Assembly: GCA_013115125.1 (NCBI GenBank)
Contig: JABANN010000080.1
Location: forward strand, 58,729-78,728
DNA: 20,000 bases
Direction of reading: 5' to 3'
From: Perkinsus olseni
Lineage: Eukaryota
Of the stretch, positions 8,805 through 19,011 are shown one piece after another. The position numbers and the translations under genes were made by a program. Within the stretch, counting starts at the first letter, position 1. Each line of letters opens with the position of its first letter. The notes beneath the pieces were generated by a model. That model saw only the letters and a list, made by a program, of their open reading frames with translations. It was not told where the DNA came from and did not search any database.

Positions 8805-9214
8805 TAGTAATTAGAGTAAGGTAACCCTCCGTAGGGGGTATGCCACGTCGCTCTGCCTTTAGTGCCGATCGCATTGTACGATAACAACCGACCGCTTGGG
8901 TCTCCGGAGTGAGCGACCCGCGCTTGCAAAGCAGGGAAGCGTCCTGAACTTCGGCAGAGCTTGACACTCAGACGATCTTCTAAGAGTACTCTCACAGTCC
9001 AAGTTATTGCGACCGAGGGGCTCTAACCAAGACGAAGTCTTCGTCACGAAGATGCAACGCAGATCGCCCTCACGACCGGTGCACCTATACCGGTCCGGTA
9101 CTACCGGAGAAGGAAGGCCATTAAAGACAAAGAAACCCAAAGAAAAGACAAAGAATCTTGGCATTAAAGCCAAGATGGCCACCCTGCCTTGGCTTATGAA
9201 AAAGACGTCCCCCT

Positions 9215-11635
9215 ATGAGGGCTTTCAACTACGAGTCGTAGTCAGCGACAAAGGCGAACCTTCATCTTTGCATGCGATGGGCGAACCATCCCTCTCGTCA
9301 GCGATGGAGGTGGTCCCTCTCGCTCAGGCTTAACTCGGCAGTCGTCAAGTCCCCTCGCTGCCGTGGAATGGACTTCTGAATCAGCCGGCCACTCGTCCGC
9401 TGTCATATCCAGCGGAGCTCTGTGGGTACGAGAATCTCCAAACGATGAGCGTTGCCGGCTTGCCGCTTCGTAGATGCTGCTGATGATGATATCGTCAATA
9501 ACAATACTGTTGGTGTACAACACTTCCACTGCCACTACAGCTCATTCAACCTCAGTGGATGGTACACCTCGCTCAGCTCTCCAGGCAACACTCGCGTCCA
9601 TCCAGGTATCATGACCACTGGGGCCGCCCTGGTCAACCACCACCTCACACCGGCGAGGACCGCTCTCTTCGGAGTCTCCAATGCTCTTCGTGTTGGTGTC
9701 TACTCAGACTTCAAGCCTTTCGACTACGAGGCGGTGAATCAGATGCTGACGCCTTGGTTCAACCAGTGGCAGAATGAACTGTAGGAAGGCACCAATGTTG
9801 CAGCTGGAGAGCGGTCGGTAGGTACCTCCTGGAGCTGGCTTTCAATGGCGAGTCCTCGAGCCTGCGTATCCAGAATCGCAGTCTCCTCTACACTGAGAAA
9901 TGCATGGGTGAGAAGCGACTATTTCCACTGGTACCATCGAGGTAGGGATTGCAGATGGTGTCAGACTGACACAGACTCAGTCATAGACAGTCTGTCACTT
10001 AACTACAATGTCGAGAGCTTTGTGCTTTCATCCTGATAGCGCTGGTAGTATATGATCATTTTGTCTCATTTGTCATATAAAGTCGACCGGTTTTCTCTAG
10101 CCTGGTTAGGTGAGACTCAGTCAACTCACGGGGGCTAGCCGGCTAGGCTGGCAATGCTTTACACTAATTGTACTGGGCCAATATCATTGGTCTGATACCC
10201 ACACCTCGTCTCTACGATAGAGGAAATTTTCCTCAGGAAAACATCAACAGGAGCTTACGAGAAACAGTCATAGGAGCTTATAAAAAGCATCATCCTTCTT
10301 TTTAGTCTCTAACAACCTTGTTGTCTCCATTCGAACTAATCACAGCTCCTGTGTCGACAATTGCCACCTTGGCGTCACCTGTGAGGGGCCTTCTACGCCC
10401 GCCCGGACCACTGCCAGCCAGGAAGATCCATGGTGAGCATCTCCTGCTTGCCGCATTCGACCCCGCCTCCCCACATGTACGAAGCAAGCATGCTGCAATA
10501 CCTCGAGAACAGCGAGGCATTCGATGCTGACCCGGATTTGGACTCGACCATCATGGCCGTTGGGGAGGGCGGCCTATCCCTCGCGACGGCGTGAGTGTCT
10601 ACTGCACGCTCTTCACGCTATCTTAACGCCCCAACAGGTTTAGCCTCCAGTTCCGTGACTCTGGAACAATCACTAATGCCGGCTCTATTGGTGCTGCTCG
10701 ATTCTCGGGCCCTTCAGCGTTTGCCTTCGTTGGCCCTGATAATATCCTTTTCGAGTGGCACCCAGTCCTGCATCTCTCAGTTAGTCGCATCCTATTGACA
10801 GCAGTAGCGAAAACCGGTGTATCTAGGTTGTTTATGATGCAGGAAGCATAGGGTCGTTATTGGCGATGAGAGTGTCCTTGGATATGCTGCCGTTGTCCCA
10901 GCAGCTGAGACGCCACATCGGAGACTTCTCGAACTCCCATTTTTTTGTTACGAATGAAATCGGTCAGGTGAGGTCATCTGATCGTCTTTCGATAGTACTC
11001 TGCGGTATATAAGGTCCTGGCCTCTACTGATGATCCAGCAGCCTACATGTCCCCTGCAGCAGCAGATGACGGATCAACACAAGTGCGTCACATCAGTTGT
11101 CACGCGGTCGGAGCGCTCTGCTCAGTTGTCCTTCCAAAGAATATGGGAAGTCTTACCGGCCGTTAAGAGAGAGTACTTCCTTGACCTCCTGCGCTCGGCG
11201 GAGAGGGTAACAGTCGAGTCTGGTAAGATTAGTATCTTTCAAGTCGACCCTGGACTGTTGTCTGCCCACAGACGACATCAGAATCGACTTGGAGATCGCA
11301 GTCTCCTCTGGCGCCCCTCTGATCTTGGTCGCAATTACTTCTATTGGAGATTTCCGAGACGCCGCCTTGGCCTCCATGGCGGTTATGCAGGTTGACCGAG
11401 CTACTGTCGGAGACCGCCATACCATGTTACGTCCTGTGCCAGGTCCTTCTCGCGTTTATTCCCTCCATTATCCTCCTAGCTCAATGGGTTTGGAAGAGGC
11501 ACAAAGGAAGGTTGGTCGAACAGCTCGACTCGAGCTCCAAGTGAAAACAAGAGCTGGTGTTCTCACTGCAGCTCGGTGAGGAGTTCAGCCGATGGCTTCT
11601 TCGACAGCGTAAAGAAGCTACTGCGAGGTTCTTGA
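9215..11635 (+). CDS. Two-TM membrane protein with extracellular Cache-like sensor domain; start (9175 or 9215) and stop (11544 or 11635) uncertain
   Basis: The spliced chain gives TM1 (AVISSGALWMLLMMISSITILLVY) and a long helix (VNHHLTPARTALFGVSNALRVG..YEAVNQMLTPWF). It continues through a Cys-containing segment ending DPWYEAS, then MRVSLDMLPLSQQL..HFFVTNEIGQVLAST, LILVAITSIGDF, TM2 (LASMAVMQVLLAFIPSIILLAQWVW) and KRHKG. The Cache assignment is by pattern resemblance only. Confidence 0.7.
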
Positions 11636-13635
11636 AATTGAGGGATCTCTCATGGATCCCATCCGAGACGATCACTGGCATGGCCATTGTCACCATGGTG
11701 AGAGTGTGAAGGTTTTCTTTGGGAGAGTTTTGAGTTGCATGACAGCAGTCCTTGGTCATGGACAGTAATTGAGAGCAGCAACGGAGGTATCCGGAATCGA
11801 GCGGGTCGATTCGAACCAGATGTTCACCAAGAGAGCGGCGGATTTGCATTCTCTACGCTCTAGGAAATTTTTGTTGGGCAGGAGACCAGATTTCGATGCT
11901 CTCAGTAGAAGTAGTGCAAATTGTGTAATCCGAGAAACTTTGTTTCATCGGTGTAAAACCTGCGCGATCTCGCCTCGCGATGGGCTTGCGTGCGTAAGCC
12001 CACGCGTCACGCAGTGACGCGGGTGTTGCGTCCCAAAAGGACACAAATGATGGAGTCTCGGCAATTGTGTAGATTGTCTCCTTTTTCCCCATTCTGATGT
12101 CCTTGGGACACTGTGTGGGTGGCTTAAGTATCCTTAGCTAGTACACTAGCTGTGGTTCAATCATTAATCATTAAGTAAAAAACTGTGATTACATATTACA
12201 TTGGTGGTTATCATCTACCACCTACGTCGTTATATATAGTGGTAGAGAGTGGGTATTCTCTATCATTGTGGTTATTGATATTGTTATTACTACAAGTCTG
12301 GATCAGTGTTTCCAGTTGTTAATCTGGAAGACCGTGGAATATATTAACCGAAAGGGTTCACAGAAGGCGATCAACACGGGGGGAAGAGTCTCGGGTCGGA
12401 AGAGAGTGGTTAGCGTCTGACCAAGTACAGCTCCTACAATGGGGGTCAGCCATCGAGGCCCTCCATCCCCTGGGATGGTCTGGCCCCTCTGTCTGTGGAG
12501 CTTGCTCGCTTGCGTCGCTTTCCACTGTCTGGTTCGCGAGCTAGCGAGATCGTAGACGGAGTTCTATTCCCAGGGGTTGTATACTACAGTACGTGCAGCC
12601 ATCTAGATTGCGTGCTGTACCGCAGTACGAGCCCTCCATACGCGATGCCTGAGGACTCCTTGTAGAAGATACCCGAATTCTATATGACATATCCGGACAT
12701 TGTCCGTAAGAGCTTCTCCCAGGGGCTGTCTGGATCGGAGGTAGCATCTCAGACTTAGTGGAAAGACGAGGACGCAAATTGCCATTGCGCTGAGAGCTCG
12801 CTAGGCCAGAACACATGACAGGCAGCCAATTGGCTTGAGGCTGGCAGTGTTTGGGATAGTTGTTTCGATGGAAGACTTCAGGTTGAAAAGTAGGTTGAAA
12901 TTGAAACTTGATCGCTCAGTGACCCGCTTCAAGTGGGTCCGGTCACCGAACTCGATAGGGCCACTTGAGTTTGGTGACCGGTAGAGAAAGTAAAGTGCAC
13001 TCTTATAGCACTTCTGTCCCAGGGTAGTGGTATTGGCTTATTCTGGCATAAGACATCCGCTTGTTGAGTTCCCCCTAAGTGATATCCAAGTCAGTACCGC
13101 CGCGGTACACCGCGACAGGCGACGTGACACACTGGCGTCACGGGAGACGTTTGTCTCTAATCAGTGACACCGGTCATGCCGTTTCTTAAGGTAGGAGCAA
13201 GCGTTGGAGATAACCGTTCTGGTCGGCAGGACATCCTGAATTGTCTCGGGTCTGTTCTAGAGCTCGGCGGAATCTTAACAATTATATAGTCAAAATGCGC
13301 CACCGTTTCAGTGGCACCAAGGAGGAGCTCCGTGTACGATTCTACATGCTTATCCTCCCGAGGATTGTCCCCATTCAGCACCACATTGCCATAGCATTCA
13401 TTGAAGACTACGCGCGAAAACCTTTACGAATTTCCCTCCTCGACGATCTGGTGCGAGGTCCTCGTGGATGATTCTCGCAGCGAGGATCATCCTAGCTGGC
13501 TCATCCTTCTCTGCTCAACTTGCTGAGTGGACATGTCTGAGAGAGACACGAGGAAAAGCGTGGAGCATGTCCCCCATTCAAACTCCGAGCTAAGACGAAG
13601 CGAAACTGGTCCGAGAAGCCCCGCCAGCTGGAAGC

Positions 13636-14358
13636 ATGCTCATCATGCACAACATCGTTGTAATTCTGTGCTTCATGTGCCTTGGTGGCACGACCTTGGA
13701 CATCAAGATTCGTCGGTCTTCGGATGGATATTCGTAAGTGATTCACTTGAAGTGAAACCTTAAGCTCTCTCGCAGAGATCCGATTCGTGTCCCGCTCAGG
13801 AAAAGCGAAGCTCAGCTCGACACTCTGTCCGTGAATGGAATGCCGATCGACCTCGCTAACGGTACAAAGTCCCACCAAGAGGATTTAGACGCCGTTGTTG
13901 TGAACTCCGGAAGAGGGCATCTCTACGAGAGGCCGATAGGGGACAAATGTTACAACGACCAGGGTTTCTTAGGAGGATGCATTTGCTACACTAACCTGGC
14001 TCTCACCCTACCCGTGAGTAGAGGATCAATTTCGAAAGGTCTTGAATGACGCTGTTCACCTCAAGCCTTTGGTCCGCTCCACTCAGGACAAGCAAGGCCT
14101 CATTGGCGCCATTGCCTCGATCGTCTGTACGAAAAAATGCAAGAACGTTGGCGAGTGCCCGAAGCCACCCGTCGGCTCGGCAGAGTGTCTCTACGGAGAC
14201 TGCCTCATCAGCTGCAACAAGAACGAGGTAAGCGAACCGAGGCTTCCTCACCGCTCCCAAACTTTTTCGTGCATTGCTAGGATTGCCCGACCTCGGCGCA
14301 CTGCGAATATTTCGCAGAATATGACCCTAAGGGATATGCCTGCGTGTTCGCTCAGTAA
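13636..14358 (+). CDS. Secreted cysteine-rich protein, 184 aa; exons 13636-13733, 13776-14013, 14087-14227, 14281-14358
   Basis: Signal-peptide-like MLIMHNIVVILCFMCLGG. C-terminal domain CTKKCKNVGECPKPPVGSAECLYGDCLISCNKNEDCPTSAHC...YACVF. Three GT-AG introns with consistent phases (555 nt). Confidence 0.85.
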
Positions 14359-14789
14359 CAAGGCTCCGGTAGGAATGGGTCGACCCGTTGCATAGCTATA
14401 AGGCTATGCATATTCATTGAATACTATTTACAAAGATATTATCAATCTCCTTCGAGCTCACTGAGCTCAGCTGAGTCATTTTCTTTTCATCTCGACATTC
14501 CACCCAAGGAGCAGAAGCTCATGTGGAATCGTCCTCTGCTCATTATTTCATATTTCCTCATTGCATATTAGAATATGCGTCGACTTTTTTCGCGGAAGAA
14601 CTAGCTGGGTATCAGGTAATTTCTGTCGTTCAGTTCAATCACTCTCTGCTAGTGAGATTAGACCGTCGAAGAGATGAGTGGCATTGATCCGTAATGTTAT
14701 TGAAGTACCTTTGACAGTCAAAGGTACGTCAAAGTTTGACTTCACCTTCGCTGCACAGGGTGGTTTGTGCGTGCGTCAAGTCGGTCGAT

Positions 14790-14985
14790 GCCGTATAGCG
14801 CGTGAGGTTGAAGACAGCAAGGATCCTGGCTTCTCCCAAATTCCAGTGTCGAGTCGTGCTCAGTGATGGTAGAATATGGCCTCCAAGGTTGCGTCCCAAG
14901 TTTTTGAACCATCCTCGTCGAGGATGGCCGAATGGCTGGAAGATCTCTCGGGCAAGACACTCTTCGAATTGGGTGCTGAGCTCAC
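14790..14985 (+). pseudogene. Possible fragment of a METTL21/Methyltransf_16-type lysine methyltransferase
   Basis: VASQVFEPSSSRMAEWLEDLSGKTLFELGA resembles the family N-terminus (vW.ss..La.wl...l.gk.vlELGaG). There is an upstream in-frame TAG and the similarity stops inside motif I. Confidence 0.35.
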
Positions 14986-15163
14986 TGATGTACGTGAAGG
15001 TCTCGCGAGAGAGCAAGTTCAAGCAAGTGCACGAATGATGGAAGAATTGGAGTGTTCCGCTACCGGCGGTAGCCTACCGCAACCGCATGGTACCGGCGTA
15101 CTAGGGCGCCCATAGCCATAGAGCGTGACAAGTCTCACTGCGATTGCCGGCTTGGCACTGTTG

Positions 15164-15395
15164 TTTTTTTTTTAATCAAGTTGGTTGGGGGACACTAACG
15201 CATGCCGAGTTACCGTGGATCGTACCTGGCGGCACGGTTAGTGTGACCAAGCTTACACTGGGGCTCGAGGCCCGAGGTAAGACCCTGAAAGGGTTCGGGC
15301 CTCGGGTTCACAGTGCTTGGTCCTCTCCCACACTCCCGACCAACTGTCCGCGCCGAGAGGCAGGGGGTTCCGAATAAGGGAACGGGCCTTGATCG
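15164..15395 (+). ncRNA. Candidate structured RNA / retroelement end of unknown family
   Basis: Nested helices 15181-15189/15335-15343, 15192-15199/15237-15244, 15245-15252/15315-15322 and 15261-15275/15295-15309. GAAA- and GAGA-capped hairpins, a closing helix atcaag/cttgat, and a preceding T10. Confidence 0.55.
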
Positions 15396-15396
15396 C

Positions 15397-15441
15397 TAGT
15401 CTACTGAGTAGACTAAAATATGGGGAGTCTCCCCATATTTT
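15397..15441. repeat. Two abutting perfect palindromes with 1-nt centres
   Basis: tagtctact-G-agtagacta 15397-15415 and aaaatatggggag-T-ctccccatatttt 15415-15441. Confidence 0.95.
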
Positions 15442-16092
15442 GCCTCGGCTTCGTCTTTTTCAACGGAGCTATTGAGGCAGGGCAGCATTTGGTATATTCG
15501 CCATTAAGCGGTTGAGGGTATTTGATATTCCTGTCAGAAGAACATGTTCTTGGAAAATGAGCGGTGGCTTTGTTTGCGACGCAATCAGTCATCATACTTA
15601 AGCTCCTCTGGGCCATCAATCTGTCAATCGGTGAGGGTTCAAAATAATTAAAAAGGGTTCATGAACCCGTTGTGTCTATGAAAGGGCTCTCCGCATAACA
15701 CGGCACACTGATCTTGCGGTTTACTTAGTAGATAGCACTTATTGCTCTATGATAGAGCCTCTATCCGTTAGAGATACTCCTGAATACACGTGGCCAGCAG
15801 CGTGGTCGCAAGACAATGTCTCAGGATCTTCATGGCTGATCGCCGGGCACGCTAACGAAGCCCTACGTTGGGCTGCATGCTGCTTTCACATCCGGCCTTT
15901 GCATCCGTTCCTGCATCTTGCTGCTTCGAGACATCGATCACGAGTTCGTCGGTAACAGCTACTCATGAACTCGGAACTGAACACTCTCCAGTACAGTCTA
16001 ACGCGTAACGTGCGATTTCAGAATCGATTCTAAGCTTAGAATTGGTCTATGGAACAACCTCTGTGATAGCTCCGATTCGAACATTGCTTTAA

Positions 16093-19011
16093 ATGTCTTC
16101 AAACTTGGCAGTGCCTCTAGTCGTCACGGAAGAGGTCGGCCCCAAACAGTCACCCAGTGAGTGCTCCTCAGACAGAGGGAACTTGTCTCGTTCCCGCCGC
16201 ATCTTACAGAGTGTCGAACACTCAGTACTCTGTCAGACAATCGTCAGAGCGTCATAATCTCCCCAACTCATGTCACAGCCGCAATGCAATCCTCGCGTCA
16301 GTACAGGCTGTCGAAGCAAAGCAGTGGAATGTGAGGATCCCGTGATGTCGCGCCCCCATGATCCGCCCCTCTGCCAGATCTATCGAGTCCAGCAGCACCT
16401 CTGGTGAGTGGCATACTGCAGGCGGGGTCGGAGGTGCTGGACAGCTATCTGCCTTCTTCAACACAGCCAACGTATCGGATACGTATCAGACGATTCCTCC
16501 GACTGCCATGAAGATGCGGACGCCGAGAGAACTCGTCGTTTCGTCCACACCTAGTTGGTCTCTGCCCCAGCTCCTTCCAGATCATCTCACATTTTCCCCA
16601 GCCATGCGCTCCTCGCTGTGACAGATGTGCGTGGGCATTGGTATCCTTGCCCTCCCGAAAGCGTTGGAATTTTCCGGCTGGGCTCTCGGGGTCATCAGCC
16701 TACTCGTTATCGCTGCGCTCACGTTTTATTCGGTAAGTGCGGCGGTGGTCGTTTCAAATCTTCGGAAGGAAATCGCGCAGCCTGCGCAGGTGAGATTGAT
16801 CGTGGCGGTATCTGCACACTTGGCCCTCCAAGACATCGAAAACAATGATGAATACCCTTCTCAACGTGGAGGAAGAGTCGTGACTCCAGGGTGGGGGCGA
16901 AGACAAATACTGGATCATGGAACGATTGTGTGATACAATTTGTATCCATCGCGAGTCGCGACCAGACTAGAGACCATGAGTTTGCCCTTCCTCTGTGCCA
17001 CAGAGTCTGCGGTTGAACATTGGGCTGGGCCGGACTAGCAGCCCTGCATCGCTGCACTGCCGCTGGGGGCCCTGGCGTCATTCTGAGCCTTGAACGCCAG
17101 AACTGTACGATTTACAGTTTGGGCCCATCGTTTCGTGCTTCGTTCGTTGAAGCAGGAGGCTTACTTCTGATCTGTTGGCATAGGTACGCTGAAGTGGTAC
17201 GCCGATGCCTGGGGTCTTCAGCTGGTGCGCTCGTCACTGCTCTCCTATGCGTATCTCAGCTTGGAGCTAACACGGCGTATCTTATCTTTATTGCTAGCAG
17301 CTTGAAGACTCATTTCCAGAGTAGGCTAGATAATCTCTTCAGTTACCCACCTCCGACTCCGAAGCCGAATAATTTTCCTGCAGGCGCGCCTTGGTTGAGA
17401 TATCCGACTCAGAAATCCCGAAGTCATCCTCTCTCAGTTTCGATGAAATCATCCCTACTAGGCTGCATTGCGGTGCTCTCACCGATATGCTGCTTGCGAT
17501 CCGTGAAATTGTTGTCGTTGGTCTCACTGGTTGGCATTGTAAGTTGTGCTGCAGCGACGGTAACCCTCATCGGAGATGCCTAGGTCTGCATGGCTGTGGG
17601 TTTGATTGCGGCAGCCTTCTGGGCAATAACAGCCGTCGTGGATACTCCAGAAGATGATGACGACGCTGCGGCGGCGCTGCTATCTCCGGCACTAAATGCG
17701 GCGAATTGGGAAACGTATGGTCCCGGTATCTACCTTGCTATTTCGTAGAGTTATCTGACGTGTTGTAAACCAGTGGGATGCTTGTAGTCCTGGAGTACTC
17801 CTTCTAGTAGTCTACTAGCCCAGTACTAGTGGCCCGGTACCAGTAGTAAAATAGTACTACTGGCAGTAGTAAACACAGCATCATGATCCTCGCTTAACCA
17901 CTTCCAGTGACGGTTAGAATCTCTGGCGATTTGCTTCACCTCCAATCGCATCTTCGGAGTGACTCGTGGGATTGACAATCTATGCCGTTGCAGGTACCCT
18001 CTCTTCCTCGGGATAGCTTCGCTGTCCTTCGAAGGCGTGGCCGCGATGGCTCTACCAATCGAGAACTCCATGGCCACCCCTGCCAAATTCCCCAACGTGA
18101 GAAAAAAACTGCTGGCGACAGGTTGCCGCAGTCTGACGAACCAGTGTGCGCCGCCCAGGTGCTCGGGTATGCAGTCGTGTTGATTCTAATCCTGAATCTA
18201 CTGTTTTCCTGCGTTATGGTTGTAGCGGTATCGAGTATCAGTGATGACGTCCCTGGTGTCATCACCCGGGCCATGCCAGAGGGATCTACGGTAAATGCAA
18301 ATTGAGAAGTGTGTTGACGATACAGATCGGCTCAGATCTCACGAGTAGTGAGTGCCTGTCTATCATTGGAGTTGCTGTGCACTTACCCCGGTAACGCCAT
18401 TCCGTTGTTCAAGTTGCTCGAGAGATCGACAGCAGCTGGACGAGTTTTTGGTAGGGGACATGAGATTCCCGTGAAATCGTCTCCAAACTTAACCGATTCG
18501 TGAAGCCTCAGTCGTGGCCCGCTGAGCAAGCCCTTCTCCCTTGTGTATTTTCTTAGGTGGCATGCGACGGCTAGCCCGCGTGACCTATTTCAGTATCATC
18601 AGGATCGTAGTCGTGGCCTTTACCGGTGTAGGAAGGCTTGTTCAGAGAATCGGTCCCACAGGGTGTCCCCTCAGGTCACCGCGTTCGTCCTGGCCGACGC
18701 CTTCGACGTTTTCCTCTCGCTGGTTGGCTCTGTTGCTAACGCTAGCGTGCTCTTCGTATTTCCTGGAATGTGCTTCGTTGCCTCCAGCACTCATGAAGAC
18801 GACAAGCGACGATACCGATGGGCTGCGGTAGGCTGGAAAATGACATCGTGTCTGCGATTCACGGTGACACTCCTCATCCTCGTAGCGGTGAATGCGTTCT
18901 CCGACTCAGGGCCTCGTGGTTGCATTTGGCCTGACTGCGGCGGTCGTCGGTACGGCTATCGGAGCTCGCACGGCCTTGCAGGGAATACTTCCTGCCGGCC
19001 ATTCATCCTAG
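16093..19011 (+). CDS. Amino-acid transporter, AAAP/Aa_trans family (SLC36/SLC38-like), multi-exon
   Basis: SAFFNTAN/MCVGIGILALPKALEFSGWALG, YAEVVRRCLG..SQLGANTAYLIFIA, PICCLRSVKLLS, FLGIASLSFEGVAAMALPIENSMATPAKFP, FLSLVGSVANASVLFVFPG. The last exon GLVVAFGLTAAVVGT..* ends at 19011. Some internal exon borders are unresolved. Confidence 0.93.

Follow-up and report, generated by a model that had tools for sequence, protein, structure and literature searches.

Genomic setting of the structured locus

The window analysed here, by which we mean the whole 20,000-nt stretch of DNA, is eukaryotic in character with short exons, and Pfam searches recognise a choline kinase, a leucine-rich-repeat (LRR) protein and an amino-acid transporter, all of which are encoded on the + strand (Table 1). 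The first ORF corresponds to an NSUN2-like methyltransferase whose best named relatives come from Symbiodiniaceae at 52-56% identity. A 93% match exists only in an unannotated run, and the protein atlas yielded only bacterial RsmB-like clusters for this NSUN fragment. The source organism is a protist and probably an alveolate. All recognised genes are on the + strand within positions 1-19000, which suggests a co-oriented cluster of the kind found in dinoflagellate-like genomes.

Several short motifs reminiscent of tRNA sequences are also present in the window. T-arm-like motifs occur in short GT-AG introns of the choline-kinase gene (2338-2377 and 2809-2826) and, reversed, at 1660-1681. Furthermore, a B-box-like pattern is matched 15 times where 7.9 matches are expected, and an A-box-like pattern 17 times where 7.8 are expected, with four of the latter falling in a tandem repeat of ~36 nt at 525-782. 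These T-arm- and box-like motifs may be remnants of tRNA-derived elements.

The structured region that is the focus of this analysis lies between genes. One gene ends near 14350 and the transporter gene starts near 16300, and no convincing coding sequence surrounds the region.

Table 1. Features of the locus, numbered from the first nucleotide of the window. X9, X11 and X12 are public runs described in the text.
Feature	Position	Strand	Basis or remark
NSUN2-like methyltransferase	3-359	+	Homology; first ORF
Choline kinase	~2400-2550	+	Pfam
LRR protein	~4850-5000	+	Pfam
Repeated block, ~400 bp	14994-15393	.	Common to contigs of other runs; left end at 14990 in one context
Left half of block, unstructured	14994-15163	.	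Fold z; indels between copies
Insertion private to window copy	15059-15080	.	15060-15073 (14 nt) absent from X11 and X9 copies
T10, internal homopolymer linker, length-polymorphic	15164-15173	+	Only T/A run of at least 8 in window
Structured half	15174-15393	+	Closing helix, three-way junction and two small hairpins; MFE and window scan
Closing helix ATCAAG/CTTGAT	15175-15180/15388-15393	+	Sequence and fold
P1, TTGGTTGGG/CCCGACCAA	15181-15189/15334-15342	+	Helix of three-way junction
Arm P2	15193-15244	+	Three-way junction
Arm P3	15245-15323	+	Three-way junction
Two small hairpins (GAGA loop; GAATAAG loop)	15346-15387	+	Predicted fold
C>T	15235		Other copies regain A-U pair with 15202 on +
T>G	15253		Internal loop; X12 only
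G>A	15274		Long-stem G-C becomes A.C on +, G.U on minus; A is majority allele
T>C	15345		Touches optional terminal pair
Two perfect hairpins right of block (8-bp arms/3-nt loop; 13-bp arms/1-nt spacer)	15397-15441	.	Locus-specific
Amino-acid transporter	16622-17580	+	Pfam

A strong fold on both strands

The first-pass annotation of this DNA had described a compact, multi-branched RNA preceded by a run of ten T residues (T10). T10 does precede the closing helix, and every helix that had been proposed was found again in the predicted structure, including the closing helix itself, P1, the arm helices ACACTAAC/GTTAGTGT and GACCAAGC/GCTTGGTC, a stem of ~19 bp, and the small hairpins GCC-GAGA-GGC and GTTCC/GGAAC. 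Folding of positions 15164-15395 on the + strand gave an MFE of -110.1 kcal/mol, compared with -84.05 +/- 5.3 kcal/mol for 200 dinucleotide shuffles (z -4.92), and 0 of the 200 shuffles were as stable. The segment 15174-15393 on the same strand has an MFE of -109.7 kcal/mol and 79 pairs, 6 of them G-U, with a centroid structure nearly the same as the MFE structure. Among 990 windows of 220 nt that were scanned with correction for G+C content, those starting at 15141-15261 ranked top on the + strand. The strong fold at 15164-15395 is real and far beyond what chance would produce.

The minus strand of 15164-15395 has an MFE of -98.8 kcal/mol and a z of -5.00, again with 0 of 200 shuffles as stable, and in the same scan of 990 windows the minus-strand starts at 15221-15261 were among the best. 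Its fold over 15174-15393 (-96.8 kcal/mol, 76 pairs, 7 G-U) retains P2 and P3 and exchanges P1 for a hairpin at 15329-15362. The + strand is ~13 kcal/mol more stable than the minus strand, an asymmetry that is not significant. The G-U pairs had previously been taken to imply an RNA read from the + strand. This argument fails, since the minus fold is equally significant and has 7 G-U pairs of its own against 6. The balance of G-U pairs and A.C mismatches is likewise unusable as a strand test, because the MFE of each strand chooses its own G-U pairs. Two GNRA tetraloops had also been reported. The GAGA loop, on a stem of 3-4 bp, can be retained, whereas the ‘GAAA’ loop is predicted to be a GAA triloop on the perfect palindrome ACCCT/AGGGT. 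We regard the evidence for strand as weak.

The fold is half of a probable dispersed repeat

Copies were sought by comparing positions 14800-15800 with contigs of four public runs (X9, X10, X11 and X12) out of 20 candidate runs; these four come from four studies and two related organisms. This one contig comparison, in which contig cover is absent at 14868-14969 and past 15411, constitutes the evidence on other copies. A block that extends from 14990 or 14994 to 15391-15393 was present in four of the four runs at ~97-99% identity, and similarity was limited to this block. In X9, one contig of 1294 nt matches 14994-15393 with 6 differing letters and 15 gap letters, carries flanks of 784 nt and 125 nt that are unlike the window, and spans both junctions at even depth. 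The X10 match covers 15090-15392 (5 differing letters, 1 gap) and gives way to 232 unlike letters, and the X12 match covers 15083-15393 (8 differing letters) and is followed by 14 unlike letters that are identical to those in X9. Contig pieces from X11 cover 14994-15375, and in this run unlike sequence appears before 14990 (one contig), before 14994 (two contigs), after 15391 (one contig) and after 15392 (two contigs). A second copy of the block within the 20-kb window was not detected by blastn with a word size of 7.

Five different right flanks are represented, the window's own included. These start at 15392-15394, such that all five junctions are no more than 3 nt apart, and the folded half ends exactly where the copies diverge. 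The two perfect hairpins to the right of the block are not part of the repeat and are covered by none of the contigs compared, and other copies enter different sequence from 15392-15394. The second of these hairpins, AAAATATGGGGAG-T-CTCCCCATATTTT, resembles a bidirectional terminator. An element that targets hairpins was considered and dropped, as clear hairpins start only the right flanks of the window and of X9. Three different left flanks, again with the window's own included, define left junctions that rest on only four contigs, with one context beginning from 14990 and the others from 14994. Two of these left flanks are alike at 21 of 30 letters by hand count, echoing the first palindrome of the block itself. 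The letters to the left of the block in the copies are GTAC (twice), TTCG and TTCA, and thus form no fixed target word.

The first letters of the block are GT (GTGAAG, or GTACGT from 14990), and its conserved 3' end is ...CTTGAT. Its ends read ...GGGCCTTGA(T) on the + strand and ...GACCTTCAC on the minus strand. A poly(A) or microsatellite tail is absent at both ends, and the ends are complementary to each other over only 6-7 bp, imperfectly. No target-site duplication was found at the window copy among direct repeats of at least 6 bp (exact) or of 8 bp with one mismatch, and no flanking direct repeat was seen in the X9 contig.

Because the copies share the block through T10 in different contexts, the 220-nt fold constitutes the right half of a larger repeat with dispersed copies. 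Specifically, we consider it very probable that positions 15174-15393 form the folded end of a non-coding repeat of ~400 bp, which is dispersed over several contexts in the source organism and also in a related one. The repeat looks like a module of a mobile element rather than a single-copy, stand-alone RNA gene. The unit had originally been judged to be ~220 nt long, within a stretch of 232 bp, and is replaced here by one of ~400 bp with T10 in the middle. T10 had been interpreted as the poly(A) tail of a minus-strand retroposed copy. That interpretation is refuted by the similarity between copies, which runs through T10 to 14990/14994. Since the copies remain alike for another ~170 bp beyond it, T10 is neither a boundary nor a tail. 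It varies between copies, with a T>A change at 15172 and one T fewer in X10, X9 and one X11 contig. The left half has none of the folding strength seen to the right of T10: positions 14990-15173 have a fold z of +0.49, and 134 of 200 shuffles fold as well.

The summed depth in X11 is 89-331 over the block versus 2 on the unique flank 14800-14859, an excess that reflects either many copies of the block or an abundant RNA. None of the 20 candidate runs is registered as RNA, and the RNA status of runs X11 and X12 is itself an automated guess. As a separate observation, the longest contigs in X9, X11 and X12, which represent two organisms, measure 14141, 14056 and 14029 nt, respectively (i.e. ~14.0-14.1 kb). 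These contigs may represent one shared long transcript or a small high-copy replicon, which bears on the RNA nature of the runs.

Variation between copies and the question of coding or RNA function

Four substitutions distinguish the other copies from the window within 15174-15393 (Table 1), and none of them is compensatory. The divergence between copies is too small for covariation to be assessed, so selection on an RNA fold may or may not have acted here. Read by hand in the open frame of the folded half, all four substitutions are non-synonymous. The indels that distinguish copies are 14 nt and 1 nt in length and break the frame. A coding exon was rejected because none of these four substitutions is silent and neither indel length is divisible by three, and in addition there are no protein relatives and no Pfam match. 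Specifically, a 79-aa frame at 14876-15112 has 0 relatives among 1.84 billion protein representatives, an 80-aa frame in the left half has no Pfam match, and an 82-aa + strand frame over the fold has no relatives among proteins of similar or greater length (88 longer candidates, none of which scored).

These same observations bear on whether the block might be an immobile conserved non-coding segment, such as the end of an ORF plus its 3' UTR or a UTR plus an intron, that belongs to a multi-copy gene family or to segmental duplications. A + strand frame (14873-15115) is open across the left junction, and hand reading of the 30-letter ends finds it open in three other left flanks as well. Moreover, the initial 14 letters of right flank are identical in X9 and X12, which come from different organisms, so that one context has been conserved between the two, and the 1294-nt X9 contig crosses both junctions at even depth. 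However, the junctions are sharp and coincide within 1-4 nt across unrelated contexts, a pattern that the gradual divergence of paralogues would not produce. When the frame-breaking indels, the uniformly non-synonymous substitutions in the folded half, the complete lack of protein relatives and the lack of convincing coding sequence on either side in the window are also considered, we judge a gene-family origin to be quite unlikely.

It is also necessary to consider whether the block belongs to a small gene family for a functional, structured + strand RNA, including one that serves as an omegaRNA-like guide scaffold at the end of a transposon with copy-specific sequence after it. The compact three-way junction with its matching centroid and MFE structures, the more stable + strand with its 6 G-U pairs, the coincidence of the fold end with the point where copies diverge, and the high depth in runs guessed to be RNA would all suit such a role. 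Yet the allele that most copies have at 15274 destabilises the long stem of the + strand, and no change between copies is compensatory. Furthermore, the conserved block includes 170 unstructured nucleotides plus U10, which would stop RNA polymerase III. Rfam yields no family even at E<=10, the neighbourhood contains neither a TnpB/Fanzor gene nor any other ORF, and the block has no A or B box beyond one match with one mismatch that lies within a stem. We therefore view a family of functional RNA genes as very unlikely. The earlier proposal of a novel ncRNA or ribozyme is unsupported on similar grounds, given four substitutions without compensation, an A.C mismatch on the + strand in the majority allele at 15274, and a strand asymmetry that is not significant.

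Searches for known RNA and transposon classes

Rfam searches gave 0 matches at gathering scores across the window and 0 matches at E<=10 for positions 14900-15700. At E<=5, the whole window produced four sub-threshold matches, none of which is inside the block. The families covered include hammerhead, HDV, SRP, snRNA and 5S, whose motifs had not been recognised in the first-pass annotation either, as well as tRNA, RNase P/MRP and group I and II introns. A match to a known Rfam family, which would have refuted the first reading, was therefore not obtained. ARAGORN found 0 tRNAs in the window. Exact-pattern scans for the block in metagenome, viral and prokaryote genome contigs gave 0 matches, and the suggestion of an endogenised viral UTR is left unsupported by the viral-contig scans.

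A SINE was rejected since the block has no Pol III A and B boxes apart from one B-box-like match with one mismatch (+ strand, 15262-15272) inside the long stem; no A-box-like match was found within the block. A run of ten U residues on the + strand would terminate RNA polymerase III. More generally, the block lacks the 3' tail of poly(A) or short tandem repeats and the target-site duplication of variable length that mark a SINE or another LINE-mobilised retroposon. The lack of a target-site duplication, combined with end complementarity of only 6-7 imperfect base pairs, makes a classic cut-and-paste element unlikely, and MITEs, hAT elements and other DNA transposons with terminal inverted repeats were rejected for the same terminal features and the absence of a flanking direct repeat.

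Helitrons begin with 5'-TC, end with 3'-CTRR preceded by a hairpin, and insert between A and T. Neither orientation of the block reads TC...CTRR, and the junction bases are not consistently A and T. An LTR was excluded because there are no TG...CA ends and because the flanks, read by hand, are neither a primer-binding site nor a polypurine tract. A spliced-leader RNA gene was rejected because the segment upstream of GT is the variable part, and the dinoflagellate spliced-leader consensus had 0 matches with three or fewer mismatches. Among the 30 window ORFs scanned, 0 carry a transposon domain, and the four Pfam matches are all to host genes. An omegaRNA of the TnpB/Fanzor type finds no support here, with 0 of the 30 window ORFs containing a nuclease or transposase domain; the arrangement of a fold followed by copy-specific flank is present but not diagnostic.

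The possibility that the block is an introner, i.e. a transposon copy that acts as a spliceosomal intron with the fold joining the splice sites, can be evaluated from its ends and surroundings. The GT at the 5' end of the block would suit an intron, and the run T10 plus AATCAAG resembles a polypyrimidine tract with AG. The best named relatives of a neighbouring gene are from dinoflagellates, and parts of one source describe hairpin-forming introner elements in related parasites (PMC7789003). However, the conserved 3' end is ...CTTGAT rather than AG, and there are no credible flanking exons, as the putative upstream ‘exon’ contains a palindrome with 9-bp arms and has no relatives. Given also that the block sits between the gene that ends near 14350 and the transporter gene, we find an introner extremely unlikely.

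Palindromes and stereotyped 14-bp insertions

Hairpin clusters like that of the block are not unique in the window. A second and stronger cluster at 6230-6600 has an MFE of -143 kcal/mol (z -7.25, 0 of 100 shuffles) and consists of near-perfect palindromes, mostly with a 1-nt spacer (6207-6223, 6282-6298, 6436-6464, 6480-6520 and 6528-6542). Its sole echo in Rfam is a sub-threshold match to mir-190 at 6470-6532 (E 0.17). Across the window there are six palindromes with arms of at least 9 and spacers of 8 or less, compared with 0-2 in each of 20 shuffles. When arms of at least 7 and spacers of 0-3 are considered, 31 of 39 palindromes have a 1-nt spacer.

Many of these palindromes take a stereotyped form. 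In this 22-mer, an 8-bp word T appears as T(1-7), then as the reverse complement of T, and then as T(2-8), for a net gain of 14 bp. The window contains 8 exact cases, 16 with no more than one mismatch and 20 with no more than two, whereas 19 of 20 shuffles contain none and the remaining shuffle contains one. The form is specific to a word length of 8, since lengths of 5, 6, 7, 9 and 10 give 1, 0, 0, 0 and 0 exact cases, respectively. The 20 sites range over 6735-17818 (6735, 7810, 8410, 8476, 8522, 8705, 8776, 9031, 9087, 9228, 10220, 11515, 11796, 13735, 14454, 15059, 15744, 16925, 16991 and 17797), with none in the first 6 kb and eight at 8-10 kb.

One of these sites is within the left half of the block, where 15059-15080 fits the direct-inverted-direct 8-mer pattern exactly. 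Positions 15059-15073 form a perfect palindrome (7-nt arms, 1-nt spacer) that is followed by a 6-nt direct repeat, and the longest palindrome arm at this site is 3 when the 14 nt are removed. Because these 14 extra bases are missing from the X11 and X9 copies, 15059-15080 is a derived insertion.

The 14-bp insertions look like hAT-type excision scars. Parts of the literature describe hAT excision as leaving flank hairpins that are opened and rejoined by the host to create footprints (PMC5499845), and likewise give a target duplication of 8 bp for Hermes (PMC10368747). If a cut-and-paste transposon that duplicates 8 bp of target were to leave, the DNA on either side would seal into a hairpin whose tip has a single unpaired base. 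Once opened, these hairpins would anneal over the 8-bp duplication and yield the direct-inverted-direct form. A 1-nt spacer fits a hairpin with one unpaired tip base, and Zhou et al. are said to have reported in 2004 that the first nick is offset by one base. The resemblance to hAT footprints, which concerns these palindromes and not the block, includes the 8-bp target as in Hermes. Unlike such footprints, however, the insertions occur at very high density (20 in 20 kb), a full 8-nt inverted copy is not the usual short footprint, and the inferred targets do not fit the Hermes pattern nTnnnnAn. Polymerase template switching, as portions of two sources present it (PMC7954356, 10.1101/2023.04.19.537475), is another possible origin, and an assembly artefact is possible as well.

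Whatever their cause, hairpins in the source genome arise at the DNA level, and this weakens any inference from hairpin to RNA function. DNA-level formation would account for the perfect hairpins beside the block (14705-14727, 14909-14927 and 15415-15441) as well as for the 6230-6600 cluster. Thus, hairpins alone provide no argument for an RNA role, because this genome makes palindromes at the DNA level.

This genomic tendency is directly relevant to the idea that the block is a non-autonomous DNA-level element, whether foldback-like, Helitron-like, or mobilised by a tyrosine recombinase or by a single-strand ‘peel and paste’ mechanism. The nested palindromes would then be DNA hairpins for a transposase, and the RNA fold would be a by-product. 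Both P2 and P3 are palindromic and fold on either strand, the block has no poly(A) tail and both of its ends are fixed, the absence of a target-site duplication is as in Helitrons and IS200/IS605-like elements, and the genome bears many scars that resemble cut-and-paste activity. Nevertheless, the inverted terminal repeat is no longer than 6-7 imperfect base pairs, the ends do not fit the Helitron rule, the block lacks an 8-bp duplication like that of the scars, the window contains no transposase, and the left neighbours differ (GTAC twice, TTCG and TTCA). We consider a DNA-level element unlikely.

A tentative retroelement interpretation

The reading we favour, tentatively and with less than even confidence, is that the block either makes up the 3' terminus of a retroelement-like element or represents a short, non-autonomous derivative of such an element, read on the + strand. 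The RNA of such an element would comprise a loosely structured stretch, then a U-run linker, and then a compact three-way-junction RNA that would end exactly at the 3' boundary of the element. This terminal RNA could serve as the handle that is bound by the reverse transcriptase of the element, which would then start copying at the target. Of the options raised in the first-pass annotation, a retroelement terminal structure fits best, in that the fold makes up one end of a multi-copy block whose sharp ends recur in different genomic contexts. The fold itself, the multiple copies, the common ends, the internal T10 and the lack of a coding or Rfam signal are observed, whereas the RNA intermediate, its strand and a partner enzyme are inferred.

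Several observations support a retroelement terminus. The right end, which is 3' on the + strand, is sharper than the left. Examined for the pattern of a non-LTR 3' end, the five right junctions cluster at 15391-15393, and those on the left, at 14990 and 14994, hint at extension. The less uniform left junctions and the similarity of left flanks suggest that longer or extended copies exist on the left side, which is the pattern expected when the 3' end is fixed. Furthermore, the folded half adjoins the end of the element, the + strand is the more stable, neither a tail nor a target-site duplication is present, and there is no coding constraint.

Other observations count against a retroelement. 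The window lacks a reverse transcriptase or any other transposon protein, and neither end of the block carries a tail of poly(A) or microsatellite sequence. The left ends fall almost at one point (14990/14994) rather than being scattered as 5' truncation would leave them. The minus-strand fold is about as significant (z -5.0), and the majority A at 15274 creates an A.C mismatch in the long stem on the + strand and a G.U pair on the minus strand. We also see a slim chance that the fold is a working + strand RNA from a class of mobile element that is undescribed in alveolates. Such an RNA might act as a guide-RNA-like scaffold with copy-specific sequence directly after its last base. Alternatively, it might process itself or recruit an enzyme and mark where an element ends without poly(A), target-site duplication or inverted repeats.

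The block family is an unclassified repeat family. As such, it should be useful for repeat masking, and it serves as a warning against taking a strong fold for an RNA gene. The finding would gain importance should the folded end turn out to serve as a recognition handle for an unknown retroelement or nuclease. Little is known about mobile elements in dinoflagellate-like lineages, and one that lacks a tail, a target-site duplication and inverted repeats all together is hard to place. The 14-bp insertions are possibly a more valuable lead than the block. If real, they are a record of cut-and-paste activity on a massive scale or of a peculiar pathway of repair, and would explain the many perfect hairpins of this genome.

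Comparison with known systems

The block resembles MITEs and foldback DNA transposons in being short, non-coding, repeated and internally rich in palindromes. Unlike these elements, it lacks both a usefully long terminal inverted repeat and a target-site duplication, and it adopts a multi-branch fold rather than one long hairpin. A similar mixture of likeness and difference is evident for the introners of Amoebophrya and other organisms, which are described in parts of PMC7789003 and PMC12130899 and which share with the block the properties of being multi-copy, non-coding and hairpin-forming. As characterised in those portions of the sources, introner elements are introns that carry inverted repeats of 8-20 nt at their two ends and are bordered by direct repeats of 3-5 nt, and the block has neither. 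Also unlike introners, the window copy of the block is not in a recognisable gene.

The omegaRNAs of TnpB and Fanzor systems, as presented in part of PMC10432273, have a comparable layout, with a structured non-coding RNA in the end region of a transposon that is directly followed by copy-specific sequence. The block differs from omegaRNAs in that no nuclease gene lies nearby, nothing points to use of the flank as a guide, and there is no sequence or Rfam similarity.

Parts of the literature on the R2 3' UTR and on the 3' tails of ‘stringent’ LINEs and their SINEs describe these RNAs as recognition modules for reverse transcriptase (PMC4176376, PMC11194090). In contrast to such non-LTR 3' modules, the block is seen without a reverse transcriptase partner, has a nearly fixed left end and no terminal short repeat, and is assigned to a strand by inference. 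R2-type 3' ends need no poly(A) tail and often lack a clean target-site duplication. Like non-LTR 3' modules, the block presents a compact structured RNA of ~200 nt at the very 3' end of the element, and this 3' end is fixed and common to the copies.
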